This document shows positions 117 through 52,648 of a stretch of DNA of 64,000 bases, one piece after another; the first letter of the stretch is position 1, and each line of letters begins with the position of its first letter. The stretch is from an uncultured delta proteobacterium. GTDB taxonomy: Bacteria > Desulfobacterota > Binatia > UBA9968. The stretch spans positions 125,317 through 189,316 of the forward strand of contig CAVYTU010000016.1 of the NCBI GenBank assembly GCA_963771465.1. The letters run 5' to 3'. The position numbers were made by a program, and so were the translations under genes. Below the pieces are notes generated by a model. It had not been told where the DNA came from and searched no databases. It was given only the letters and a program-made list of their open reading frames with translations.

Positions 117-1148
117 ATGGAAGTAAAGTCGGTCAAGGAACGGAACACCGAATTGATGATGCATAGCGTCAAGTTCGCCAAAGACGAACAGGCGCGGCGC
201 AAGGGGCAGGAGATTCTTTTCAAATGGCCGGATATCGAGAAGCAACTGGGCGAGCATAAACATATTTACGTCGTCGACGCGCGGCTCGGTTCGAACAATC
301 ACACCCATCGCCTTTGGTACGATGTCATTCCGCCGCACACGGAGGAAGGCCAGGAATGGCGCACCCTCGGCCATCGCCACACAGTAGAAGCGATCATTTA
401 TTTTCTTAAAGGCCACGGCCACAGCATCATCGACGGCGTACGCTACGACTGGGGACCGGGCGATTTGTTGAGCGTGCCGATGTTTTCTTGGCACCGCCAT
501 GTCAACGACGGCGATGAGCCGGTGCTGCGCATCGCGTCGACCACAGGACCGTTGTCATTGGGCTTGGGTCAAGCGGTTTACGAAGACGAACGCTATCCTG
601 AGTTCTGGGTTTATGCTCAGGAAGGCGAGGACGCGCGCAAAACATTGATCCCAGGCGGCGGATCGGCCGAAACCGGCAAGGTGGCCAACAACCGCGCCGC
701 GGAAATGTACGCCGAGCAGGTCGGTTTCGCCATGCACGAAGAACAGCTCAGGCGGAACAGCAAAGTTTTGGTGAAACAGAAAGACCTGGTTTTCGAGCCG
801 ACAGCCATGGGCAACGTCGCTTACGTCGTCGATCCGCGCATCGGTTTTCACAGCAAGGCTCTTGGCGTGGTCATGGCGGAAATACCTCCCGGCAAACGCT
901 CCGGCGCCCATCGGCATCTTTACGATGAAATCGATTTGATCGTCGGCGGCAAGGGCAAAGTGATCGTCGAAGACAAGTCGTTCGATTTCGACACCCTGGA
1001 CGTGCTGTCGATTCCCGTCTTTCAGTGGCATCAATATTTCAACACCGGCACCGAGCCACTGCGCATTCTCGGTATCAACACGCGGCTAGCGATGGACAAT
1101 CTCGGTTTGTCGTTGACGCACCAGGGCGAGAAGGCGGATTATGTCTGA
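117..1148 (+). CDS. Bicupin protein (gentisate 1,2-dioxygenase-like superfamily)
   Basis: Two cupin motifs, GHRHTVEAIIY..GDLLSVPMFSWHRH and AHRHLYDE..DVLSIPVFQWHQY; G-rich RBS-like run upstream. Confidence 0.85.
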   Translation: MEVKSVKERNTELMMHSVKFAKDEQARRKGQEILFKWPDIEKQLGEHKHIYVVDARLGSNNHTHRLWYDVIPPHTEEGQEWRTLGHRHTVEAIIYFLKGHGHSIIDGVRYDWGPGDLLSVPMFSWHRHVNDGDEPVLRIASTTGPLSLGLGQAVYEDERYPEFWVYAQEGEDARKTLIPGGGSAETGKVANNRAAEMYAEQVGFAMHEEQLRRNSKVLVKQKDLVFEPTAMGNVAYVVDPRIGFHSKALGVVMAEIPPGKRSGAHRHLYDEIDLIVGGKGKVIVEDKSFDFDTLDVLSIPVFQWHQYFNTGTEPLRILGINTRLAMDNLGLSLTHQGEKADYV

Positions 1149-1240: not shown

Positions 1241-2392
1241 GTGGAAGTTAAATTTGGTTTGTTTAGTTGCGATTCCCACGCGCAGTTGGACCGTGACGCG
1301 TGGACCAAGCGGATGTCGAAGGACAAGTGGGGCGATCGGATTCCGCAGATCGTCGAGGTTAACGAGGACGGCAAGACCGTGGACCGATGGATCGTCAACG
1401 GCAAGGTGCGCACTGAATGGGTGTGCAACTGTCCGGCGGCGATGGAAGGCGGCGTGGCGCGCGGTTATTATCCGCGGCGCTGGGAAGAGGTGCCGAAGAT
1501 CGTTTACGATCCGGCCCAGCGCTTGAAAGCGTTGGATGACGATCGCGTCGACGGCGAGGTGCTTTATCCCAACGGCCCGGTGTCGAATTTTGCCTTTCTC
1601 CAAGCCGACGCCGAGTTCGAGCTGGCTTGTGTGCGAGCGTACAACGACGCGCTGGCCGAGTGGCGCGAAGTGAGCGACCGCTATGTTCCCATGGCGATTA
1701 TTCCCTACATGAACGAGATTGACGTAGTTGTCGCCGAAGTCGAGCACGCGGTTAAGCGCGGCCATCGCGGCGTGGTCATGCTCGCCGAGCCGGCTTTCAC
1801 CAAGAAAGGCTTGAAGCGCATGAACGATCCCTACTGGGAACCGCTCTGGGCCTGTTGCCAAGACTTGGGCATTCCCATGCACTGGCATGGTTCGTCCGGC
1901 TTGACTCAGCAGCTGTCTTTGCCGAAGTGGGATGGCTTCTCAAAAAAGGAAATGCATACGGTTTCCACTTCGCGCCTGTGCGCGACGCCGGCGCAGCTGA
2001 TTCCAAACTTGATCTTCTCCGGAATCCTCGACCGCTATCCGCGCCTCAATTGGGCCTGCGCCGAGACCGGGTTCGGTTGGGTTAGTTACGTGCTCGAGGC
2101 GAGCGATCACGAGTGGGAGCAGCGTCAGCTGTGGAAGGAAGGGGTCAAGACAAAACCGAGCGAAGTATTTCGCCGGCAGATCTACGTCGACTTCTGGTAT
2201 GAGAAGGCGGGTATCGAACTGCGCGAGCTAGTCGGCGTCGACAATATTATGTGGGAGTCGGACTATCCGCATATCGCCGCGACCTATCCCAAGTCTTGGA
2301 GTTTCGTCGAAGACTCGCTCGTCGGCGTGCCGGAAGACGAGCGCAAGAAGTTGTGTTATGGCAACGCGATGAGGCTCTACGGGCTTACGTAG
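1241..2392 (+). CDS. Amidohydrolase_2 family protein (type A, intact catalytic motif)
   Basis: SCDSH, HWHG, ETG, WESDYPH and GNAMRLYG motifs; GGGGAG RBS before the GTG start. Confidence 0.92.
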   Translation: MEVKFGLFSCDSHAQLDRDAWTKRMSKDKWGDRIPQIVEVNEDGKTVDRWIVNGKVRTEWVCNCPAAMEGGVARGYYPRRWEEVPKIVYDPAQRLKALDDDRVDGEVLYPNGPVSNFAFLQADAEFELACVRAYNDALAEWREVSDRYVPMAIIPYMNEIDVVVAEVEHAVKRGHRGVVMLAEPAFTKKGLKRMNDPYWEPLWACCQDLGIPMHWHGSSGLTQQLSLPKWDGFSKKEMHTVSTSRLCATPAQLIPNLIFSGILDRYPRLNWACAETGFGWVSYVLEASDHEWEQRQLWKEGVKTKPSEVFRRQIYVDFWYEKAGIELRELVGVDNIMWESDYPHIAATYPKSWSFVEDSLVGVPEDERKKLCYGNAMRLYGLT

Positions 2393-2454
2393 AATCACCA
2401 TGGTGCAACAATCACTAAAGCCGAGCATGACAACCAAAGAGAAGTAACATCACA

Positions 2455-3594
2455 ATGAACAATAGTTTTATCAGCGTCGATGAACATGTCCAGGAACATC
2501 CCGAGGTCTGGATCAAAAGAATGTCGCGGGCCAAGTGGGGTGAGCGGATTCCGCATGTTGAGCACAGTTCAAACGGCGTCGAGAGTTGGGTCGTCGACGG
2601 TCGGAAGATCGATCTAGCCGGCGTCGCCGATTGCGGCGCGGCGATGGCGGATCGGACGCAAAACCCGCAGCGTTGGGCCGACGTGCCGGCGGCGGTCTAT
2701 GATCCGAAGGAACGATTGAAGGCGATGGATGCGGCCGGCATCGATTACGCGGTGCTTTATCCGACCGTCGCCGGCGTCGGCGGACAATCGTTTGGGCGTA
2801 TGGAAGATCGAGAGTTAGAGCTCGCCTGCGTGCAAGCGTACAACGACTGGCTGCTCGAAGAGTGGGGCGGCGCGAGTGAACGATTTGTTTCGCAGTGCAT
2901 CACACCGCTCGGTCCGGTTGACGCCGTCGTCAAAGAAATTCGCCGCTGTGTGGCCAAGGGTCATCGCGGCGTGATTTATCCATCGATCCCCATGGAGCTG
3001 CGCGACGTGCCGCATATCAACGATTCGACCTATGATCCGATCTGGGCGACTTGCCAGGAATTGGCCGTGCCGATCTGTTTTCATGCCGGCGCTTCGAGCC
3101 AGATACAGATTCCCGCTTACGAAGGCTATTCACCGGCGTTGGCGGCGGCGGTTCAGTCGATCACCCGGCCGGCGAGCTCGGTGTCGGTGTTGGTGAATCT
3201 TTTGATCTCGAAAATTCTCATGCGCTTTCCGCAATTGAAAGTCGTACTCGCCGAGAGCGGTCTGGGCTGGGGCGCATACTTGTTGGAGTACACCGATTTT
3301 CAAGCCACCGGCGATCAGTTGCCGCAAAACGGCTACGATCTCATGCCGTCGGAGTTGTTCAAGCGGCAGTGTTACCTGGTCGGCTGGTACGATAAAGCTA
3401 GTTTGCGTGTGCGCCGTTACGTCGGCACGGAAAATATTCTCTGGTCGAGCCAGTTTCCACAGGCGACGTCGACGTGGCCGAAGACTCAGGAAAGTTTAGC
3501 GCAAAGTTTCGAAGGCGTGGATGAAGGCGACAAGCAAAAGATCCTTTGGGAAAACGCGGCGAAGTTATATAAGATTGCCAAGCGTAGAATTTGA
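2455..3594 (+). CDS. Amidohydrolase_2 family protein (type B, catalytic Asp absent)
   Basis: SVDEH, FHAG, ENAAKLY; WSSQFPQ replaces WxxDxPH. Confidence 0.9.
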   Translation: MNNSFISVDEHVQEHPEVWIKRMSRAKWGERIPHVEHSSNGVESWVVDGRKIDLAGVADCGAAMADRTQNPQRWADVPAAVYDPKERLKAMDAAGIDYAVLYPTVAGVGGQSFGRMEDRELELACVQAYNDWLLEEWGGASERFVSQCITPLGPVDAVVKEIRRCVAKGHRGVIYPSIPMELRDVPHINDSTYDPIWATCQELAVPICFHAGASSQIQIPAYEGYSPALAAAVQSITRPASSVSVLVNLLISKILMRFPQLKVVLAESGLGWGAYLLEYTDFQATGDQLPQNGYDLMPSELFKRQCYLVGWYDKASLRVRRYVGTENILWSSQFPQATSTWPKTQESLAQSFEGVDEGDKQKILWENAAKLYKIAKRRI

Positions 3595-3606
3595 GTTGGA
3601 GCGATC

Positions 3607-4287
3607 ATGTCTCATTGGCCTAAAATACGTCCGACCATCGATGCAATGGTCAACCAGCAGTTCGACACGCCGGAATTCAAAAAACTCTTCGCGGTGCCGC
3701 TGACGGCGCAACGGATCAAAGTCTATCAAAACCACATGACTTTCTATGCCAACAACCGGCGCGATTGTTGGGCGTTTGTCGCCGGCAAGGCGCCGCTCGA
3801 CGTCAAGCGCGCCATCTGGGCGCATGAGAAAGACGAGTTGATCCACGACGAGCGCATGGGGCGCGCGCATGTGACGGAGGATGACTTGCAGGCCGGCGAT
3901 GAGTCTTTGTTGGCTCCCGGCGCCAAGGCGGCATACTATGCCTGGCTATATTGCGCACGTGAAAAGCCTTGGCTCGAAGGGCTCGTCTATTCGCATATTC
4001 TCGAGCGGCGCAACAACAACGCCATCGTCAAAGGCGGCGGATTGGTCGAGCGCTGGAAGCGCAAGCAACGGGCCGAGCTGGGTGAAAAAACCGCCGCGAG
4101 GGATTTCCAAACCGAAGTGCACGCCATCGCCGACGAAGATCACTCGGATATCTTCGAGCCGATCTTTGTGCGCCATATCGATAGCGAAGCGGCCGCGCAG
4201 GCGGTGCTGGCGGCAACGCGGGACGGTCTGGTGATCGACCGCGCATTGCGCGGCGCACTGGCGGATGCGATGTTGGCGGTGGAGTGA
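3607..4287 (+). CDS. Heme-oxygenase-like diiron enzyme (CADD/PqqC/TenA fold)
   Basis: HEKDEL..AH, ILE and HAIADEDH (H-x3-D-x2-H) match the CADD-type iron ligand pattern; GGAG RBS. Confidence 0.72.
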   Translation: MSHWPKIRPTIDAMVNQQFDTPEFKKLFAVPLTAQRIKVYQNHMTFYANNRRDCWAFVAGKAPLDVKRAIWAHEKDELIHDERMGRAHVTEDDLQAGDESLLAPGAKAAYYAWLYCAREKPWLEGLVYSHILERRNNNAIVKGGGLVERWKRKQRAELGEKTAARDFQTEVHAIADEDHSDIFEPIFVRHIDSEAAAQAVLAATRDGLVIDRALRGALADAMLAVE

Positions 4288-4437: not shown

Positions 4438-5530
4438 ATGGCAGACACACCGGTTAATGCCGAGCAAGAAGTAAAAGAAAGAGTTGCGTACAAGTCGCCC
4501 TACGAGCAGTGGAAGGAAGTCGGAAGGATTGCAGACCTATCGCGGCTTGGCGATCAAAAATCTCTATGAGCTTGAATTGTCGCCGTGGAAGTCGAGCGGC
4601 GCGGGCTCGGCGGCATTCTTGAATTTGGAAGGCACAGGCGGATTCAACGACTCCTACGTCGCGGAAATTCCTCCCGGCAAATCGCTCAAATCGCATCGGC
4701 ATTTGTTCGAGGAAACGATTTACATTCTTAAAGGCCAAGGCGCGACTTCGGTTTGGATCGATCCGGCCAAGAAAGAGACCTTCGAGTGGCAGGAGGGAAG
4801 TTATTTTTCGATTCCGATGAACGCTTGGCATGAGCATCATAATGCTTCGGGCTTGGACTCCGCGCGCTACATCGCCATGACCAGCGCGCCGCGGGTGATC
4901 GATACGTTCAACAACTACGAATTCGTTTTCGACAACCCGTTCGTTTTCAAAGACCGCTACAACTCGGAGGAAGGCTACTTCAAACAAAAAGCGCCGGCAC
5001 AGCAGTGGTCGACTAACTTCGTCGCCGACGTGCGCGTGTGCCAGACTTACTCCGGCGGCTTTGACCGCGGCGGCGGCGCCAAGAGCACGGTGTTTCGCAT
5101 GGTCAATCAGACGGTCAAGTCGCATGTCTCGCTCTGGGGCGTGGGCGCGTACAAGAAGGCGCACCGCCACGGTCCCGGCATTCATGTTCTGATCATCCGA
5201 GGCCACGGCTATTCGATCATGTGGAATGAAGGCAAACCGTGGGAGCGTGTCGAGTGGGGACCGGGCAGCGTGTTCGTGCCGCCGGAAATGTGGTTCCATC
5301 AGCATTTCAACGGCAGCGCCGAGCCGGTGTTTTTCCTCGCCATCGGTTGGGGCAGCGACAAGCCGAAAGCGGGCGGCAAGGCGTACATTTATAAGAGCGT
5401 CAAAGAAGGCGGCGATCAGATCGAGTACGAGGACGAAGACCCGAAAATGCATGCCGAGTTCGAAGTCGCGATGAAGCAAGCCGGCGCGCGCTGCAAGATG
5501 GATTATCATCCTCACTGCACGATGAAGTGA
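4438..5530 (+). CDS. Bicupin protein, frameshift near 4515
   Basis: GAGGAGG RBS before ATG 4438 (MADTPVNAEQEVKERVAYKSPYEQWK), continuing in the 4484 frame; HRHLFEE..WHEH and HRHGPG..WFHQH cupin motifs. Confidence 0.82.
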
Positions 5531-5573: not shown

Positions 5574-6668
5574 ATGACGCATCAAGAGATTGCGGTCTCA
5601 ATTGCGGTTACCGCTGTTGTTCGTTGACGTGCGTGGCATGTTGTCAGTCGCACAATCGGCGTCCATCGAAGCGCTTTTCAGCGAGATCAACAAGCTGCCG
5701 GCGCCGCAGCGCCAGAAGCGGCTCGAAGACGGCGCGCGCAAAGAGGGCGCGTTTAAATTTTACGGCATCTCCAATGCCGCTCTGCTCGACGCCTACTACC
5801 GCCGGTTTCATGCAAACGATATCCGTTCATTAAAGCTGAGTTCTGGCGCGGCAGCGGCAACAAGTTGGTGTTTCGCACATTGACCGAACATCGCGCCGGT
5901 CAGTTGGATACCGACGCGGTGTTGGTCGGCACGGAAAACGTTATGACGCTCAAGCGCTCGGGCATCTGGGCGCGCTACCATTCGCCGGAGTCGGTAAATT
6001 TCGCCAAAGAGTTCACGGATAAGGACGGCTACTGGCATGCCGATAGTTTGGGCGTATCGACGCTCGCTTACAATACCAAGCTGGTCAGGAAAGAAGAGGC
6101 GCCGAAGGGATACGACGATCTCTTCGAGCCAAGTGGAAGGGCAGCTCTTTCCATCGACATGGAACCCGAGCGGGCGTTGATGGGCTGGTTGACCGCCTGG
6201 GGCGAGCAGAAAACTCGCGCCTTTGTCGAGAGATTGATTAAACATGGCGCCGTCGTACGGCGCGGCCACACTTTGCAAGCGCAACTGATGTGTGCCGGCG
6301 AGTTCAAAGTCGCCGTGGAGATATATCCCGACGGGATTTTGCGCATGAAGCAAGACGGCTGTCCGGCGGCGATCTGGTTTTTCCCAACCCGACGCCGGCG
6401 CATATCAGCGGCGCCATCGGCATCTACGTCAACACCTCGCGTCCCCACGCCGCGGCGCTTATTCATCGACTTCATGAAGTCGGCCGAAGGCGCGAAAATA
6501 CTCGCGTCGACCGGCCGACTCTCAGGCCGCAAAGGCGTCAAGTCGTTGTATGACGATCTCAATAATCTCGAAGAACGCGGCATTCCGCTGCTGGTCGTCG
6601 GACCCGAGCAGTCCGAGCTGGTGGCGAAGCCAATGGAACGAATCATGAAAGATATTCTCGTACCGTAG
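5574..6668 (+). CDS. ABC-type extracellular solute-binding protein (Fe/thiamine/AfuA-like), several frameshifts
   Basis: Pieces in different frames (QRQKRLEDGARKEG, TEHRAGQLDTDAV, AYNTKLV..APKGYDDL, RPHAAALxIDF) are homologous to the intact 53839-54906 gene. Confidence 0.75.
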
Positions 6669-6762
6669 CTCGTGTCGTGTCCGTGACTCGTGGTCGTCGG
6701 ATCACGAGGTTTGTGCAAAGGCGCGGAGAACGCCAAGTGACCAATTAGCCAACTTTATGTGA

Positions 6763-6849
6763 TTTTCACCACGAAGGACACGAAGAGCACGAAGTGCGGA
6801 AAATAATTATCCGAACCCTTCGTGTCCTTCGTGCTCTTCGTGGTGAAAA
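6763..6849. repeat. Inverted repeat with 9-bp-period CACGAAG arms
   Basis: TTTTCACCACGAAGGACACGAAGAGCACGAAG, 23-nt spacer, CTTCGTGTCCTTCGTGCTCTTCGTGGTGAAAA. Confidence 0.9.
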
Positions 6850-6888
6850 ATCGATCTGCGCTAAGACGATCGAGGAGGAACCGTTTCG

Positions 6889-8052
6889 ATGTCCCGTCGG
6901 TACGCTTATTTTTCCGCTGACAGCCACTTCGAACGGCTACCGGAAACGTGGACGCACCGGGTGCCCGCGAAGTATCGCGACCGCGCGCCGCGACGGATCA
7001 AGCTTGCCGACGGGCGAGACGCCATTATCGAGGAGGGCCAGCCGCTCGAATATCGCGGGACCAATTTGTTTGCCGGAAAAGGCGCCGAGAATTTCAATCC
7101 GACGCATCTCGACTTTGAAAACGCGGTCGGCGCCGGCTCGCCGCAACAACGATTGCAGGAACAAGATGCCGACGGCATCGACGGCGAGCTATTGTTCGCC
7201 AGCGAGGCGCGCAACACCAAGATCAAAGACCGGGACGCGTTTATGGCCATCGTTCAGGCTTTCAACGATTACTTCATCGAGGAATATTGCGCCGTCGATC
7301 GCGACCGGTTGATCGGCGTGGCGGTTATGCCTGACATCGGCGCGGAGGAAAACGTCGCCGAAATGAAACGCTGCAAGGAAAAAGGTTTCAAAGCGGTGCG
7401 CCTGCATACTTTTCCCAGCGGCAAGAGTTTTCCGACGCCGGAAGATGACAACTTCTGGGCCGCGGCGCTCGAACTCGACATGCCCGTGACGATCCACACG
7501 TCGTTTCCGCGCCGGACCGATGAGCGCGACGTTTACTTGATGAAATATCCGAAAGATCCCCAGGGTGAAGACCGGCCATTCGATTTTCTCCAGCGCCTGG
7601 CGCGCCAAGGCATCTATCATTGCGGCGCGGTGGAAGCGACACAGTTGATCTTCACCGGTGTGTTCGACCGCTTTCCCAAGCTGCAAGTCTTTTGGGCGGA
7701 GAACAACATCGGTTGGATTCCTTACTTCTACCAGCAGATCGATCAGACCTATAAAGTGAACCGCCATTGGGCCGACAAGCTGCTCGGCCTGCCCAAACTC
7801 AAGAAACTGCCGAGCGAATATTTGCGCGAGCATGCTCACTGGGGGGTCTTCGACGATCCCATCGGCATCGAACTGCGCCATAGGGTCGGCGTCGACCGAG
7901 TCATGTGGTCGACCGACTTCCCGCACATCGTCACGCGCTGGCCAAAATCTCTGGAACTGATGGAAGAACAGTTCGCCGGCGTGCCTGAGAATGAGAAACA
8001 GGCGATGGTGGCGGGAAACGCGGTGAAGTTTTTTCATCTCGACGCCGCGTAA
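6889..8052 (+). CDS. Amidohydrolase_2 family protein
   Basis: SADSH, TIHT, WSTDFPH and GNAVKFF motifs; GAGGAGG RBS. Confidence 0.92.
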   Translation: MSRRYAYFSADSHFERLPETWTHRVPAKYRDRAPRRIKLADGRDAIIEEGQPLEYRGTNLFAGKGAENFNPTHLDFENAVGAGSPQQRLQEQDADGIDGELLFASEARNTKIKDRDAFMAIVQAFNDYFIEEYCAVDRDRLIGVAVMPDIGAEENVAEMKRCKEKGFKAVRLHTFPSGKSFPTPEDDNFWAAALELDMPVTIHTSFPRRTDERDVYLMKYPKDPQGEDRPFDFLQRLARQGIYHCGAVEATQLIFTGVFDRFPKLQVFWAENNIGWIPYFYQQIDQTYKVNRHWADKLLGLPKLKKLPSEYLREHAHWGVFDDPIGIELRHRVGVDRVMWSTDFPHIVTRWPKSLELMEEQFAGVPENEKQAMVAGNAVKFFHLDAA

Positions 8053-46503: not shown

Positions 46504-46523
46504 AGTATTTTTTGGAGGTCAAC

Positions 46524-48743
46524 ATGAGCTATCAGGTCGTCGGTCATTCGAGTCCACGGGTCGATAATACCGGCAAAGTCACGGGCGAGGCGCGTTATAC
46601 CGCGGATGTGTTCCTGCCCGGCACCTTGTGGGCGAAAACATTGCGCAGTCCGTATTCACATGCGCGCATTAAGAGCATGGACACTGGGCGCGCGGCCAAG
46701 GCACCGGGAGTGCGCGCGGTGCTGACCGGCAACGACGTGCGCGGCATTATTTATGGCCGGCGTTATTGCGACATTTCCGTGCTGGCGCAGGACAAGGTGC
46801 GCTTCATGGGCGAGCGTGTCGCGGCGATCGCGGCGGATACTTTGGAACAAGCCGAGCATGCGCTGGAACTGATTCAAGTCGACTACGAAGAGCTGCCGGC
46901 GGTGTTCGACCCGATCACGGCGATGCAAGAGGGAGCGCCGATCATTCATCCTGACTTGAACAGCTACAAAGGGCTGCCGGAAAAATTCGCCGGGCCGACC
47001 AATCAGTTCGTGCGCAATCTTTTCACCCGCGGCGATGTGGCGGTGGGGTTCGCCGAGTCCGATCTCATCGTCGAAAATACTTTCACCGTGCCGCGCGTGC
47101 ATCAGGCGTTTCTCGAACCGCACTGCTGTCTGGTTTGGATCGACGAGCATGAACGGATTCAAATGTGGTCGCCGTGCAAAGTGCCCCAGGGGCTCAAAGA
47201 GAGCATGTCCGAGGCGTTCGGTATTCCCAAAGAAAAAATCCGCGTCAATCCGGTGGCGATCGGCGGTGACTTCGGCGGCAAAGGCGCGCCCTTCGACGAG
47301 CCGATCTGTCTGATGCTGGCGCAGCGTACCGGCCGGCCGGTAAAAATGGTGATGGAATATCGCGAGGAATTTATCGCTGGCGCGCCGCGCCACGGCGGCG
47401 TGATTCGGCTTAAGACCGGCGTCAAGCGCGACGGCACGATTGTCGCCCATGAGATGGAAGCTTTTCTCGACGCCGGCGCTTACGGCGGATTTCGTCCGGG
47501 CGCCGTGGTCGGCGGTATCGCACACGGCGCCGGCTGCTATCGCGCCGAGCACGCGCGCATTTCCACGTCCCGCGTCTATACCAACAATCTGCCGGGCGGC
47601 CAGATGCGCGCGCCGGGGGAGCCGCAAGGATTCTTCGCGGCGGAATCGCACATCGATTGTGTCGCGCGCAAAGTTGGCATGGACCCGGCGGCATTTCGCT
47701 TGAAGAATCTAATGCAAGAGGGCGATATCACGCTCACCGGCGGACACTACAAAGCTATCCGAGCCAAAGAGACGCTCACCGCGGCGATGAAGGCGGCGGG
47801 TTACGATGCGCCCAAAGCAAAGAACGTTGGCCGCGGTGTTGCCATGGGCTATCGCGGACCGGGGGGCGGAAATACCGCGCTGAAAATTTCTCTCAACATG
47901 GACGGTTCGATCGTGATTCACACCGGCCTGTTCGAGCAAGGCACCGGCACTTACACCACGATGAGGCAAATCACGGCGGAAGAACTTTCCTGCACGCCAG
48001 AGGAAATTACGATCGACACGCTGGACACCGATGACGGCGCGTCGTTCGATTCCGGTATCGGCGGCAGCCGTGGCACGCGGGTCGCCAGCGGCGCGGCTTA
48101 TACCGCGGCGTGCGACGCGCGGGAAAAGCTATTCGCGCTGGCGGAAAAACTATTAAGGTGGGCGAAGGCGGACATCGCGTTGGCGGGCGGCGAATTACTC
48201 AATAAGAAAACTAATAAACGCATGCGCTGGGACGAATTGCTCACGGGCGTCGGCCGCGCCATCCACGGTGAAGCGGTCAATCGCGATGACGATCATTCGC
48301 CGGTCACCTCCTTCGCGGCTCAGGTTGCCGAAGTTGCTGTCGACCCACAGACCGGCGCGGTGACGCTTAGAAAATTAACTAGCGCGCATGATACCGGTGT
48401 GATCATGAATCCGGTCGGTCATCAAGGACAGATCGACGGCGGCGTCGTACAAGGCGTCGGCTACGGCTTGATCGAATACTTGCCGGTGCAAGACGGCAAA
48501 GTCGAAGTGGCGCACTTCGGCGAATATAAAATCCCCACGGTCAGAGATATCCCGCCGCTCAAAACCGTGCTCTTGCCGAGCGAAAACGGCCTCGGTCCAT
48601 ACAAAGTCAAAGGCATCGGCGAAAATCCGATCTCGCCGGTGGCGCCGGCGATCGCCAACGCCATCGAAGACGCGGTCGGTGTGCGCATACGCGATCTGCC
48701 GGTCACGGCGGAGAAGGTTTACGCGGCGCTGCGCGCTAAGTGA
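46524..48743 (+). CDS. Xanthine dehydrogenase family molybdopterin-binding (large) subunit
   Basis: KVTGEARY, LRSPYSHARI, GGDFGGK, MRAPG, GQIDGG and KGIGE motifs; GGAGG RBS. Confidence 0.93.
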   Translation: MSYQVVGHSSPRVDNTGKVTGEARYTADVFLPGTLWAKTLRSPYSHARIKSMDTGRAAKAPGVRAVLTGNDVRGIIYGRRYCDISVLAQDKVRFMGERVAAIAADTLEQAEHALELIQVDYEELPAVFDPITAMQEGAPIIHPDLNSYKGLPEKFAGPTNQFVRNLFTRGDVAVGFAESDLIVENTFTVPRVHQAFLEPHCCLVWIDEHERIQMWSPCKVPQGLKESMSEAFGIPKEKIRVNPVAIGGDFGGKGAPFDEPICLMLAQRTGRPVKMVMEYREEFIAGAPRHGGVIRLKTGVKRDGTIVAHEMEAFLDAGAYGGFRPGAVVGGIAHGAGCYRAEHARISTSRVYTNNLPGGQMRAPGEPQGFFAAESHIDCVARKVGMDPAAFRLKNLMQEGDITLTGGHYKAIRAKETLTAAMKAAGYDAPKAKNVGRGVAMGYRGPGGGNTALKISLNMDGSIVIHTGLFEQGTGTYTTMRQITAEELSCTPEEITIDTLDTDDGASFDSGIGGSRGTRVASGAAYTAACDAREKLFALAEKLLRWAKADIALAGGELLNKKTNKRMRWDELLTGVGRAIHGEAVNRDDDHSPVTSFAAQVAEVAVDPQTGAVTLRKLTSAHDTGVIMNPVGHQGQIDGGVVQGVGYGLIEYLPVQDGKVEVAHFGEYKIPTVRDIPPLKTVLLPSENGLGPYKVKGIGENPISPVAPAIANAIEDAVGVRIRDLPVTAEKVYAALRAK

Positions 48744-48788: not shown

Positions 48789-50213
48789 ATGGCGTTCGAA
48801 TCGCTTGAAGAATTCATTAACGCGGCGGACAAGGTCGGCGAAGTGCTGCATGTCGATGGCGCCGACTTGGAGTTGGACGTTGGTGGATTGACCGAGCTTA
48901 CGGCCGAGAAAAATGGGCCCATGGTCGTGTTCGATAAGTTTGCCGGATTTCCAGCAGGATTCCGTGTCGCTGCCAATGCCAACCGGACGCTGCGCCGTTT
49001 TGCGCTGGCGATGGGATTGCCGATCGATATTCATCCATTAGAGTTGCTGCGCCGTTGGCGTGACAAGCGCGCCGGCTCCCTGCCTATGGCCGCGCGCGTG
49101 GTGAAAGACGGACCGGTGCTTTCCAACATGCAGCAGGGCGACGCTGTCAACATCGAAAGCTTTCCCGCGCCGCGCTGGCATCCGGGCGACGGCGGGCGCT
49201 ACATCGGTACCCAAGATATGGTCATCCTGCGCGATCCCGAGCAGGGCTGGGTCAACATGGGGTGTTATCGCGCGATGATTCAGCGGCGCGATCGAATTAG
49301 TCTGTGGATCAATCCGCAGAAGCATGGACGAATTCTTGCGCAGAAGTATTGGCGCGACGGCAAAGCGGCGCCGGTCGCCGTCGTGTTTGGCTGCGAGCCG
49401 GTGACATGGATGACGGCGTCGATGTCGCCGCCGTTCGGCACCTCAGAGTACGAACTCGCCGGTGCTTATCGCAACAGTCCGGTAGATGTTGTCGAGTTGC
49501 CGTTAACCAAATTACCGGTGCCGGCACAGTCGGAGATCGCCGTCGAGGGAGAAATCCCGCCGGAGAGCGAAGAGACTGCGATTGAAGGACCGTTCGGCGA
49601 GTGGCCGGGCTACTACACGCATCAAGGACCGGAAGCGGTCGTGCGCATTAAGCGCATTTACTACCGCGACAATCCGATCATCGCCGGCGCGCCGCCGCTC
49701 AGACCGATCAACTGGAGCAACTTTACCAACTACGTGCATCTGTGGGAGCATCTCGAACGGTCCGGTATCACCGATGTCGCCGGCGTGTGGGGATTTTACA
49801 ACGGCTTGCTCACCGTCGTGTCGCTCAAGCAGCGCTACGCCGGCCACGCCAAGCAAGCGCTGATCACCGCAGCGGGCTTTCGCCACGGCGATATGAAGAC
49901 TTATTACGTGACGGTCGACGACGATATCGACCCGACCAATCAGGAAGAAGTGCTGTGGGCGATGTGCACACGCGTCGATCCCACGACAGCGGTCGATGTC
50001 GTGCGTGACGCGTGGACGGCTGACCTCGATCCGCGCGTGTCGCCGGCGCGCCGCGCGGCGGGAGATCTGACAGTTGGTAGAATGCTGATCAACGCGTGCA
50101 AGCCGTTCGCCTGGCGCGATCAGTTCGCCAAGACGAATGTCTTCGGCGCTGAAGATCGCCAGAAACTGCAAGCGAAGTGGGGCGAGTTGTTGGCGACGAT
50201 TGGCAAGAAATGA
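48789..50213 (+). CDS. UbiD-family prFMN-dependent (de)carboxylase
   Basis: DGGRYI, NMGCYR, EGPFGEWPGYY and VDDDIDP..VLWA motifs. Confidence 0.93.
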   Translation: MAFESLEEFINAADKVGEVLHVDGADLELDVGGLTELTAEKNGPMVVFDKFAGFPAGFRVAANANRTLRRFALAMGLPIDIHPLELLRRWRDKRAGSLPMAARVVKDGPVLSNMQQGDAVNIESFPAPRWHPGDGGRYIGTQDMVILRDPEQGWVNMGCYRAMIQRRDRISLWINPQKHGRILAQKYWRDGKAAPVAVVFGCEPVTWMTASMSPPFGTSEYELAGAYRNSPVDVVELPLTKLPVPAQSEIAVEGEIPPESEETAIEGPFGEWPGYYTHQGPEAVVRIKRIYYRDNPIIAGAPPLRPINWSNFTNYVHLWEHLERSGITDVAGVWGFYNGLLTVVSLKQRYAGHAKQALITAAGFRHGDMKTYYVTVDDDIDPTNQEEVLWAMCTRVDPTTAVDVVRDAWTADLDPRVSPARRAAGDLTVGRMLINACKPFAWRDQFAKTNVFGAEDRQKLQAKWGELLATIGKK

Positions 50214-50265: not shown

Positions 50266-51414
50266 ATGGAACTCAAACATAAACTTATTAGCGCCGATTC
50301 CCATGCGGGATTTGACCGCGACGATTTCACCAAGCGCATGTCCGCGAGTAAGTGGGGCGAGCGCATACCGCATATCGTCGAAACGAACAAAAACGGCAAG
50401 CGCGTCGATCGCTGGTCGGTGTACGGCGAGCCGAAGAGCAACGACGTGGCCAATTGCCCGGCGTTGATGGGCGAGCCGTTCCCGACTTATCCGAAACTCT
50501 ACGAAGAGATTCCCAAAGCGTACTACGATCCGCTGGCGCGGCTTAAGATGCTCGATGCCGACGGGGTCGACGCCGAAGTGTTGTTTCCCAACCCTCCCGG
50601 TGGAACTTACTTCGAGCCTGGCGATGTCGAATTCGAACTGGACGTGGTGCGTACCTATAATGACATCCTTGCTGAGTGGTATCGCATCAGTGACCGCTAT
50701 CTGCCATTAGCAGCGGTGCCGTACTTGAGTTCACCGGAAGTGATTAAACGAGAGTTCGAACGCGCCGCGGCGGCGGGTCATCGCGGCGTTAACCTGATGG
50801 GGCAGATGCCCAAAGGTCTGCCGCACATCACTGACCCTTACTGGTACCCGCTTTGGGATGTTTGCCAGGCTTTGGCGTTGCCGATTCATTTTCACGGTTC
50901 GGCTGGGTTGAGCGCAGGCGGATCGGTGCGCAAGTGGAGCGGCTATTCGCATCGTCAGGCCCACTCAGCGCAGACCGCGACGTCGGCGGTGACGCCGGCG
51001 CAGATCGTGCCGCAATTTATTTTTTCTGGGATTACCGAAAAGTTTCCTGGCTTGATCAGTGTGTTTCCCGAAGCCGGCGTCGGCAGCTTGAACTACGTCA
51101 TCGCAACCTGCGATCACGAGTGGGAAAGCCGCCACCTGTGGACCGAAGGCATCACCACGCGGCCTAGCGAGATTGTGCGCCGGCAGATGTACGTGAACTT
51201 TTGGTTTGAGGCCGAAGGCATCAAACTGCGCGATGACATCGGCGTCGATAACATCATGTGGGAGTCGGATTTTCCTCACGTGGCGTCTTACTACCCGCAT
51301 TCTTGGCGCGAGGTCGAGCGCGTCCTCAAAGGCGTCCCGGCAGCGGACCGGCGCAAAATGCAGTATGAGAACGCCGTGCGGCTGTACAGGATCGACGCGG
51401 TTCTACCGGCATAA
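50266..51414 (+). CDS. Amidohydrolase_2 family protein (type A)
   Basis: SADSH, NCPA, FHG and WESDFPH motifs; paralog of 1241-2392; GGAGG RBS. Confidence 0.92.
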   Translation: MELKHKLISADSHAGFDRDDFTKRMSASKWGERIPHIVETNKNGKRVDRWSVYGEPKSNDVANCPALMGEPFPTYPKLYEEIPKAYYDPLARLKMLDADGVDAEVLFPNPPGGTYFEPGDVEFELDVVRTYNDILAEWYRISDRYLPLAAVPYLSSPEVIKREFERAAAAGHRGVNLMGQMPKGLPHITDPYWYPLWDVCQALALPIHFHGSAGLSAGGSVRKWSGYSHRQAHSAQTATSAVTPAQIVPQFIFSGITEKFPGLISVFPEAGVGSLNYVIATCDHEWESRHLWTEGITTRPSEIVRRQMYVNFWFEAEGIKLRDDIGVDNIMWESDFPHVASYYPHSWREVERVLKGVPAADRRKMQYENAVRLYRIDAVLPA

Positions 51415-51523: not shown

Positions 51524-52648
51524 ATGCAATTGAAATACGGTTTCATCAGCGTTGACGATCATGTTCAGGAGACGCCCAACCTGTGGGTCGATCGGCTCAA
51601 GAAAAAGTTTGGCGATCGAGTACCCCATTTGGTCACTGCAAAAGATGGCAGCGAACAGTGGATCTTCAATGGGCAAATGCTCCTCGATGGCCGCGCCGCT
51701 CGGGCCGGAGCATTGATGCCGGATCGCAATGAGGATCCCAAACGCTGGGCCGATGTGCCGGCGCCGGCGTTTACCCCTGCGGAGCGATTGAAAGCGATGG
51801 ATTCGGCCGGCATCGACTATTCGGTGCTTTACCCTACGGTGGCCGGTTTGGCAGGAGAGACTTTCGGCCGCGCGCAAGATTCCGCTTTGGAGATCGCCTG
51901 CGTGCAAACGTATAACGATTGGCTGATTGACGAATGGGCGAGCGTTAGCGAGCGCTTTGTCCCGCAGTGTCTGGTGCCGATCTGGCCGGTGGAAGCGGCC
52001 ATCGCCGAGATTAGGCGCGCGGTGGGCCGCGGTCATCGCGGCGTGATCTTGCCGTCCTTGCCTATGCACCTGCGTGAGGTTCCCCATATCAGCGGACCGG
52101 AATACGACCCGCTCTGGTCGGTGTGCGAAGAGTTGGCCGTGCCGGTCTGTCTCCATGCCGGCGCGTCGCCCGACTTACAGTCGCCGCTGCCGCCGCAGAT
52201 GAAGCCGGCCTTGGCCGCGGCAGTGGATGCGGCGACCAAGCCGGTATCGAGTGTGTTCGTGATTTCGCTTTACTCATTTTCGCGAGTCTTACTGCGCCAT
52301 CCAAAACTGCGCTTGGTGTTGGCCGAGAGCGCGCTCAGTTGGGGCATGCTCTATTTAGAATGGGCCGATCACCAGTTCGAGCATGACGGTCTCGCCCGCG
52401 AGGGTTACGACCTCACGCCGTTGCAAATGTTCAAGCGCCAATGCTTCTTCAATGCCTGGTACGATCCCGTCGCGCCCTTCACCGATTACATTGGCGCCGA
52501 TCGGATTCTCTGGTCGGCCAATCTTCCGCTGGCAAATTCGACTTGGCCGCGCACTCGGGAAACCATCGATCATTGTTTCAAGGGAGTATCGACCGAAGAC
52601 CGCGAAAGAGTGTTGTGGAGAAATGCGGCGGAGCTTTATCGGTTGTGA
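51524..52648 (+). CDS. Amidohydrolase_2 family protein (type B, catalytic Asp absent)
   Basis: SVDDH, LHAG and WSANLPL; paralog of 2455-3594. Confidence 0.9.
   Translation: MQLKYGFISVDDHVQETPNLWVDRLKKKFGDRVPHLVTAKDGSEQWIFNGQMLLDGRAARAGALMPDRNEDPKRWADVPAPAFTPAERLKAMDSAGIDYSVLYPTVAGLAGETFGRAQDSALEIACVQTYNDWLIDEWASVSERFVPQCLVPIWPVEAAIAEIRRAVGRGHRGVILPSLPMHLREVPHISGPEYDPLWSVCEELAVPVCLHAGASPDLQSPLPPQMKPALAAAVDAATKPVSSVFVISLYSFSRVLLRHPKLRLVLAESALSWGMLYLEWADHQFEHDGLAREGYDLTPLQMFKRQCFFNAWYDPVAPFTDYIGADRILWSANLPLANSTWPRTRETIDHCFKGVSTEDRERVLWRNAAELYRL

Follow-up and report, generated by a model that had tools for sequence, protein, structure and literature searches.

Why should a bacterium keep, twice within one stretch of DNA, a gene for a metal-dependent enzyme directly followed by a full-length paralog that has lost metal-binding residues? 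This question is raised by a 64,000-nucleotide stretch (hereafter the window) of contig CAVYTU010000016.1, positions 125,317 to 189,316, from the assembly GCA_963771465.1 of an uncultured delta proteobacterium of the Binatia, in which two such pairs of PF04909 (Amidohydro_2) genes, A1-B1 and A2-B2, are found (Table 1). The answer that we consider probable is that A and B together form one heteromeric PF04909 metalloenzyme, each as a subunit, with an architecture like that of AibH1H2, the 2-aminoisobutyrate hydroxylase of Rhodococcus wratislaviensis, and that A+B arose through a tandem duplication of its own. That A and B form a heteromer is well supported by the comparative evidence taken together with a predicted complex, the two genes being co-inherited, co-diverging and often separated by only a few bases or overlapping.

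Gene pairs in the window and across genomes

A sequence-only reading of this DNA had noted four amidohydrolase genes, with both B copies intact, and this was borne out, since all four open reading frames (ORFs) are in place and intact, and their products score above the curated PF04909 cut-off of 26.4 bits (A1, 96.3; B1, 104; A2, 94.9; B2, 107.7 bits). The motifs quoted in that reading were also recovered, namely DSHA..DRD..TKRMS..KWG.RIP, NCPA, DHEWE.R.LW and WESD[YF]PH in the A proteins, and ISVD[ED]HVQE and LKAMD.AGIDY.VLYPTVAG in the B proteins together with WSSQFPQ in B1 and WSANLPL in B2. A1 and A2 share 52-53% amino acid identity and B1 and B2 share 52%, while A is 33-39% identical to B. 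The ATG of B1 is preceded by GAGAAG, which resembles a ribosome-binding site, that of B2 by GAGAGGAAA, a plausible ribosome-binding site, and that of A2 by GGAGG at a distance of 5 nt.

The whole genome (6.9 Mb) gave 138 matches to PF04909, and 123 of its ORFs of at least 200 aa matched a profile of five window proteins. Among these 123, the A clade is represented by A1 and A2 only and the B clade by B1 and B2 only; none of the remaining family ORFs exceeds about 33% identity to A or B. Because just two A-clade and two B-clade ORFs occur in this large set and each B gene lies directly downstream of an A gene, the pairing seen in the window exceeds chance.

The same arrangement was found in many other soil bacteria. 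A search with B1, taking one genome per species, returned 54 loci whose B-type gene shares at least 52% identity with the query, and an A-type gene stood directly upstream on the same strand in 52 of them, the other two (L018 and L033) starting at the edge of the locus. With an A profile as the query, 78 loci were obtained and a B-type gene was directly downstream in 74, the other four (L113, L120, L133 and L150) ending at or just after A. A search with P0125, the earliest-branching B representative, added 73 further loci, and the basal B types of L157, L158, L159 and L226, which read E-P-[L/M/R], also come after a D-P-H-T gene. After removal of duplicates the union comprised 138 distinct B-type genes, 130 of which had at least 1100 nt of upstream DNA, and A was directly upstream of B in 126 of these 130 informative loci. 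Two of the four exceptions are fragmented (L054 and L227), one has A about 0.9 kb upstream (L099), and one, L177, is a true exception that is taken up below; B nearly always lies directly downstream of A, the point that the sequence-only reading had proposed to test. The start of B, as estimated from the alignment, overlaps the stop of A by 4 nt in 11 of 52 loci. The pair is present in genomes labelled Binatota, Chloroflexota, Pseudomonadota, Tectimicrobiota and others, labels that are unreliable for metagenome bins, and some genomes hold three A-B pairs.

Phylogenetic analysis was carried out on 73 proteins by maximum likelihood (IQ-TREE, LG+G4, careful search). In the resulting tree, the A sequences (25 rows) and the B sequences (26 rows) each make up one side of a branch (support 100/99), and A and B together formed a clade (100/96) that is nested among D-x-P-H-x-T proteins and lies apart from the D-x-P-H-x-D/E group. 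A and B are sister groups, and their internal branching is mirrored. An earlier quick tree of 89 rows agrees, and a quick tree under the C20 mixture model gave the split with support of 99. Pairwise A-A distances follow the B-B distances closely (r = 0.97 over 496 pairs), the maximum in 1000 label permutations being 0.42. The pattern fits a history of one old tandem duplication, after which B lost the Asp and the His and the pair was in time duplicated as a unit. The adjacency and the mirrored phylogenies together support the view, also put forward earlier from the window sequence, that A and B would make up an obligate module of two genes, copied as a whole.

B is under purifying selection and is not decaying. 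Mean column identity is 70% for B and 65% for A, and of 28 pairs each, 18 were usable for B and 16 for A, giving a median ratio of nonsynonymous to synonymous substitution rates (dN/dS) of 0.108 and 0.066, respectively, with dS at about 1.4 and near saturation.

Closest relatives and metal-ligand positions

The sequence-only reading had set A and B in the frame of ACMSD, LigW and LigJ-type enzymes. This frame did not hold: the closest solved relatives are DitZ, PtmU3 and AibH1H2, and both A and B carry the N-terminal D-x-H of strand 1. DitZ matched B1 with E = 4e-38 and A1 with E = 2.5e-28, and PtmU3 matched A1 with E = 6e-33 and B1 with E = 1.6e-30; the next-best solved relatives were 4DZI, SfbO/TruffO and AibH1H2. 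Matches of A and B to AibH1 and AibH2 (6m1w chains A and B) were far weaker than those to DitZ and PtmU3 (E = 1e-13 to 9e-4), and ACMSD/LigW-type relatives were found at E = 1e-8 to 1e-13. The AlphaFold2 model of B1, with a mean predicted local distance difference test score (pLDDT) of 86.6, gave Z 41 against DitZ, 38 against PtmU3, 34 against 4DZI, 33 against AibH1H2 and about 30-31 against ACMSD-type decarboxylases. The enzymes of the ACMSD, LigW and gamma-resorcylate decarboxylase type share with A and B the Pfam family and the TIM-barrel fold and have a strand-8 Asp as metal ligand and general base, and ACMSD is described in the title of PDB entry 4IFK as a dimer that needs an Arg of the neighbouring subunit; these enzymes differ in being mononuclear homo-oligomers and in their much weaker sequence similarity.

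DitZ (8UYR) and PtmU3 (6OMP) are diiron members of the amidohydrolase-related dinuclear oxygenases (AROs), a recently recognised superfamily of which few members have been characterised and which is marked by a dinuclear Fe/Mn cofactor and by O2-dependent oxidation. In the excerpts of the literature cited here, AROs are defined by an N-terminal D-x-H and a C-terminal D-x-P-H-x-D/E, and none of the characterised hydrolases and decarboxylases with this fold makes use of the N-terminal D-x-H (Liu et al., 2026; PMC13154177). AibH1H2 is described in such excerpts as a heteromer with the composition alpha2alpha'2, built of two PF04909 paralogs of 28% identity, in which AibH2 is catalytic and uses Asp25, His27, His211, Glu265, Asp337 and His340 as ligands with Asp342 in the second sphere; AibH1 is non-catalytic, retains Asp328 and His331, lacks only the last Asp and binds a single metal, the last acidic residue being tied to binding of the second metal (Hibi et al., 2021; PMC7782822). 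The two subunits bind tightly and in about equal amounts, and neither gave activity when expressed alone (PMC7782822). The mono- and dinuclear sites were confirmed by Powell et al. (2023; PMC10401708), and the excerpts of a 2025 review (PMC12141560) report that ligand mutants of AibH1 yield an insoluble complex and that the metal loop of AibH2 lies at the dimer interface.

Ligand positions were counted in 32-sequence alignments of A and of B, taken from the window and 30 public loci. A1 carries all six AibH2/DitZ-type ligand positions (D11, H13, H216, E275, D341 and H344), and these, together with P343, are invariant in 32/32 aligned A sequences. Position 346 is Ala in 16/32 and Thr in 16/32 and is never Asp or Glu, which places A outside the ARO motif D-x-P-H-x-D/E. 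In B, four positions (D9, H11, H210 and E267) are invariant in 32/32, the D-x-H thus being common to both proteins in the alignments, although it is lost in some B copies outside them. At the column of A's Asp341, the aligned B sequences read Asn in 24, Gln in 6, His in 1 and Ser in 1, and at that of His344 they read Leu in 26, Gln in 5 and Met in 1; the resulting motif, N/Q/H/S-x-P-L/Q/M-x-T, departs from the ARO C-terminal motif. Both B proteins of the window show the strand-8 loss that had been noted earlier, with Gln/Gln in B1 (Q333 and Q336) and Asn/Leu in B2. The strand-8 Asp is present in A and absent from 138/138 distinct B-type genes, a count in which the absence was a selection criterion as well as the result of a motif tally. 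D-P-H-T is the reading of 34 of the full-length representatives closest to B1.

Because Asp is replaced by Asn or Gln and His by Leu or Gln, B would be unable to form the second metal site. By analogy with AibH1, the B proteins of the window may still hold one metal, since four of the six ligand positions are invariant. The earlier description of B as catalytically degenerate must be qualified accordingly, and A itself is without the last acidic residue of the ARO signature. Over the wider set of B genes, the strand-8 residues vary further (N/Q/H/S/E/K/A and L/Q/M/R/T/S), and in several lineages the remaining ligands have been lost as well: the four positions read V-R-H-E in L104, V-Q-R-E in L114, V-Q-R-G in L186, N-Y-R-G in representative P0127, and A-R-N-D in L115 and L117, whose sister L106 still reads D-H-H-E. 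In the basal B copies of L157-L159 and L226 they read DHH[A/S/T], the Glu ligand being replaced. All B copies with such extra ligand loss adjoin a complete A. Ligands have been lost repeatedly and independently in a gene under purifying selection, which argues against catalysis at that site as the conserved role of B. The loss is graded, from four of six ligands kept down to none, and the role of a dead subunit can therefore be tested by comparison.

In the reading that we prefer, A would bear the metal centre and carry out the chemistry with all six direct ligand positions of the DitZ/PtmU3/AibH2 type, and B would be a scaffold or specificity subunit. In most lineages B would perhaps hold one structural metal through its D-x-H, His and Glu, as AibH1 does, and in some lineages it would have no ligands left. 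A more far-reaching version, which we regard as rather unlikely, is that A and B form a class apart, obligately heteromeric and outside the ARO signature, in which the site of A, one short of the seven residues, is competent only in company with its dead paralog. B would then pack its helices on A and tune or complete the second metal site or the substrate pocket of A in trans, and a pseudo-enzyme subunit would be a required part of a new cofactor environment. The large D-x-P-H-x-T/A group falls outside the published motif filter, and motif-based censuses of AROs would miss it if this version were true.

The ligand pattern also bears on whether A and B could be separate enzymes for consecutive steps, B being active alone by a changed, mononuclear or metal-independent mechanism in which its D-x-H, His and Glu work with Asn or Gln in place of the Asp. 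We consider this improbable. The invariance of D9, H11, H210 and E267, accompanied by that of many other residues, the dN/dS of 0.11 and the B gene of L177, which stands without an adjacent A, would all suit such an enzyme, and adjacency alone is also typical of consecutive pathway steps. The two strand-8 positions, however, vary among B proteins, so that no alternative catalytic residue is maintained there, and several B lineages (ARND, VQRE, VQRG and NYRG) have lost their remaining ligands beside a complete A. The strict 1:1 co-divergence of A and B across phyla, while their neighbours change, fits subunits of one enzyme better than two enzymes.

Predicted A-B complex and its interpretation

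A model of the A1+B1 complex was built with our own 32-row alignments. Its ipSAE was 0.95, 0.95 and 0.94 in three runs, the best of three controls reaching 0.00, with 194-200 contacts, at least 96% contact agreement between runs and a partner pLDDT of at least 92. The pass mark used is reached by 58/80 solved complexes and 2/110 mismatched pairs, rates that are only rough where user alignments are supplied. The modelled interface is pseudo-symmetric, residues 221-260, 277-302 and 320-330 of A facing 216-252, 269-292 and 312-322 of B, and the A-specific invariant residues H290-E291-W292, part of the DHEWE motif, lie inside it. According to this model, A and B would assemble through a pseudo-two-fold interface of the helices that follow the Glu-ligand strand, with A 221-260 and 277-302 set against B 216-252 and 269-292. 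In the AlphaFold2 monomer model of A1 (mean pLDDT 79.7), the strand-8 loop 342-349 falls below 50, which is only a hint that this loop might need a metal or a partner.

Covariation between the two proteins was also calculated, as mutual information (MI) with average product correction over 115 A-B pairs with an effective number of sequences of about 50. The top pairs include A239-B287 and A243-B287, which were later predicted as contacts, and in 5 of the top 25 pairs both residues lie in the modelled interface, against about 0.7 expected. The covariation was nevertheless dropped as evidence of binding, because MI was unchanged when partners were shuffled within groups of at least 70% identity and the clade-level signal is inseparable from shared ancestry. 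The metal loop of A may touch B, as in AibH1H2: residues A345 and A348 covary with B275-287, but A341-349 lie outside the confident interface residues.

The model also bears on the suggestion that B is a non-enzymatic helper that forms no stable complex with A and acts in substrate binding or delivery, as a chaperone for metal insertion or as a regulator. B has lost catalytic residues but kept the fold and a possible ligand pocket, which would be in keeping with such a helper, as would the abundance of transport-binding proteins in the window and related loci, which suggests scavenging of many substrates. Against this, the predicted interface is large and pseudo-symmetric (0.95 vs 0.00), AibH1 binds AibH2 tightly and becomes part of an insoluble complex when its metal ligands are mutated, and the 4-nt overlaps between the end of A and the start of B fit co-expression at equal dose. 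We therefore hold a free-standing helper to be slightly less probable still than two consecutive enzymes. That the adjacency is a mere remnant of tandem duplication in a family that has expanded hugely in this genome, where several other tandem pairs occur among the 138 PF04909 matches, with B on its way to being lost, can be set aside as very improbable, since B is as conserved as A (70% vs 65%) with a dN/dS of 0.11, and the pair is kept across genomes of several labelled phyla, with metatranscriptome contigs matching both genes.

Returning to a heteromer of A and B, several observations weigh against it or against its details. A lacks the final Asp or Glu of the ARO signature, and because this is the residue tied by Hibi et al. 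to binding of the second metal, the site of A may, by analogy, be mononuclear like that of the non-catalytic AibH1. The four ligand positions of B are invariant in most lineages, which makes an activity of its own or a metal-dependent role conceivable. At L177, the B-type gene (2980-4125; 61% identical to B1, with S-P-L) has no A within 3 kb upstream, where a Gln_deamidase_2 gene is found, and a gene for a family 5 binding protein lies on its downstream side; complete pairs do occur elsewhere in this bin. A search for fusions gave no protein of 665-2000 aa matching B1 at E <= 1e-30, which is weak evidence. The complex score may reflect memory, in the prediction model, of solved complexes, because like assemblies, namely PF04909 homodimers and AibH1H2, have already been solved. 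The score comes from A1+B1 alone and does not separate a heteromer from homomers, and the complex modelling that the sequence-only reading had called for came out in favour of an A1-B1 interface without distinguishing the two. The invariance of MI under shuffling belongs here too. Finally, in Pfam scans of the window and ten related loci, neither a small Rieske ferredoxin nor a reductase was seen next to the pair.

Such a combination of an active subunit with a dead paralog is not a new architecture, because AibH1H2 is already published as a heteromer with a non-catalytic PF04909 paralog (excerpts of PMC7782822 and PMC12141560), and the statement of the sequence-only reading that no description existed for this family must be withdrawn. 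The likeness to AibH1H2 (6M1W, 8FUL-8FUO) lies in the adjacent genes for PF04909 paralogs, one of them with an incomplete metal site, and in the N-terminal D-x-H of both subunits. There are also differences: the non-catalytic subunit of AibH1H2 keeps the strand-8 Asp and His and is without the last Asp, a pattern that here is matched by A, whereas B has lost more than AibH1; the gene order is reversed, the degenerate gene here being second; and no Rieske ferredoxin or reductase genes lie near A and B. With DitZ and PtmU3, A shares the same six direct ligand positions; these two proteins have D-x-P-H-x-D/E where A ends in Ala or Thr and B is without the Asp and the His, and neither is listed in the PDB table with a distinct second partner sequence. 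We infer that the duplication that gave A and B was independent of that of AibH1 and AibH2, because A is closest to B and B to A, and both match AibH1 and AibH2 only weakly, the AibH sequences themselves not being among the rows of the tree. What would be new is thus an independent duplication, a more degenerate partner and an A protein with D-x-P-H-x-A/T outside the ARO signature. Open-access full text gave no account of the A+B pair or of D-x-P-H-x-T/A proteins, subscription journals and ARO supplements being outside this coverage. AibH1H2 is the single known ARO heteromer, and what its auxiliary subunit does is still called elusive; A+B would be a second, independently evolved case with more than 130 natural paired examples.

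As to the reaction, we lean slightly towards oxidation with O2, the substrate being a transported aromatic or alicyclic acid or a coenzyme A (CoA) ester, and away from a decarboxylation, hydration or hydrolysis without redox chemistry. The close relatives that have been characterised are all oxygenases, and A has the D-x-H and the six ligand positions. Low-potential AROs that use a redox partner have the gene of a small Rieske ferredoxin within a few genes; high-potential AROs mostly lack a neighbouring ferredoxin according to the excerpts of PMC13154177, and the neighbours here include ring-cleavage-type bicupins and possibly a haem-oxygenase-like ORF. Against O2 chemistry, the seventh residue, linked to the second metal, is missing and there is no reductase gene nearby. 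The balance is close to even mainly because the ligand description of AibH1 fits A and not B.

Gene neighbourhoods and other PF04909 genes

The gene neighbourhoods of pair 1 and pair 2 differ (Table 1), in keeping with the different operons of the sequence-only reading. Across related loci only A and B are constant, and the bicupins, binding proteins, UbiD, and acyl-CoA dehydrogenase and hydratase genes differ by lineage. The bicupin upstream of A1 is kept in Binatia-type loci, and bicupins, the ORF of 226 aa after B1 (orf226) and the third paralog C3 accompany pair 1 only in loci of this type. A TctC-type binding protein precedes the loci of pair-2 type. The UbiD-family gene beside A2 was absent from all related loci examined, and the molybdopterin hydroxylase gene ahead of it has no adjoining genes for flavin adenine dinucleotide (FAD) or 2Fe-2S subunits.

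Table 1. Positions of the A and B genes and of neighbouring features in the window.
Feature	Position	Strand	Remarks
Bicupin	117-1148	+	distantly like gentisate and 5-aminosalicylate 1,2-dioxygenases, below family cut-offs
A1, PF04909 protein	1241-2392	+	383 aa; strand-8 motif D-Y-P-H-I-A; proposed catalytic subunit
B1, PF04909 paralog	2455-3594	+	379 aa; proposed non-catalytic partner
orf226	3607-4287	+	226 aa; directly after B1; candidate haem-oxygenase-like/TenA-like
Second cupin protein	4484-5530	+	followed by terminator-like hairpin 5734-5752
Binding-protein gene	5590-6668	+	between second cupin and C3; split over two frames near 5809-5815
C3, third PF04909 paralog	6889-8052	+	D-F-P-H-I-V; about 26-30% identical to A and B
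Molybdopterin hydroxylase large subunit	46512-48743	+	4-hydroxybenzoyl-CoA reductase/xanthine dehydrogenase-like, below equivalog cut-offs
UbiD-family decarboxylase	48789-50213	+	directly upstream of A2
A2, second A-clade gene	50266-51414	+	382 aa; strand-8 motif D-F-P-H-V-A
B2, second B-clade gene	51524-52648	+	374 aa; strand-8 motif N-L-P-L-A-N

The product of orf226 is 74-94% identical among Binatia-type loci. A Pfam scan gave no match to it, even at E <= 1; an atlas search returned clusters of haem-oxygenase-like 'iron-containing redox enzyme'/TenA proteins with a score of 0.95, and a PDB search returned TenA at E = 0.9, which suggests that orf226 may be a second O2-related metalloprotein of the operon. 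C3 is kept 3-4 kb downstream of A1-B1 in Binatia-type loci, with 83-91% identity; it falls in another clade and is not accompanied by a B-type gene. The split in the binding-protein gene before C3, judged against intact orthologs of 360 aa, is either a frameshift or an assembly error. Portions of A1, B1 and orf226 are matched by contigs from soil metatranscriptomes, one of which (2293-2505) bridges the gap between A1 and B1; this is a faint indication that the pair is transcribed, as contigs are no proof of a single transcript and carried-over DNA may have contributed.

The window as a whole holds about 17 genes for solute-binding proteins (NMT1, TctC, TAXI, SBP_bac_3/6/11 and phosphonate-binding types), and no permease family appeared among the 49 window ORFs scanned. 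Three LigXa-like Rieske oxygenases and three family III CoA-transferases are also encoded there.

Elsewhere in the genome, the canonical ARO motif D-P-H-x-D/E occurs in about 38 of the 123 family ORFs, and D-P-H-x-A/V/N/G occurs in many others. Further tandem PF04909 pairs from other subfamilies, at C14:1001298-1003452 and C17:967063-969147, possibly include a degenerate partner, with an A-Y-P-E gene beside D-Y-P-H in one case and an N-Y-P-Y gene beside D-Y-G-H in another, and an active gene with a degenerate neighbour may be a theme that recurs in PF04909. No account of the PF04909 expansion in Binatia was found in open-access full text, which leaves subscription journals outside its coverage. 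In Streptomyces spp. (L065-L078), tandem overlapping PF04909 genes were seen in which both members are D-P-H-x-E and PtmU3-like, such as 5776-7062 and 7059-8288 of L071; these are possibly heteromers of two complete subunits.

A cultured strain, Paraburkholderia sp. GAS448, carries two A-B pairs (L214 and L216) in which A reads D-P-H-x-P and B reads N-H-H-E with K-P-M/L, and genetics and biochemistry of the pair are therefore feasible. Each of these pairs is followed by a gene of the Ureidogly_lyase fold and flanked by acyl-CoA dehydrogenase, enoyl-CoA hydratase and MaoC-type genes, surroundings that recall, as context only, the terpenoid setting of DitZ.

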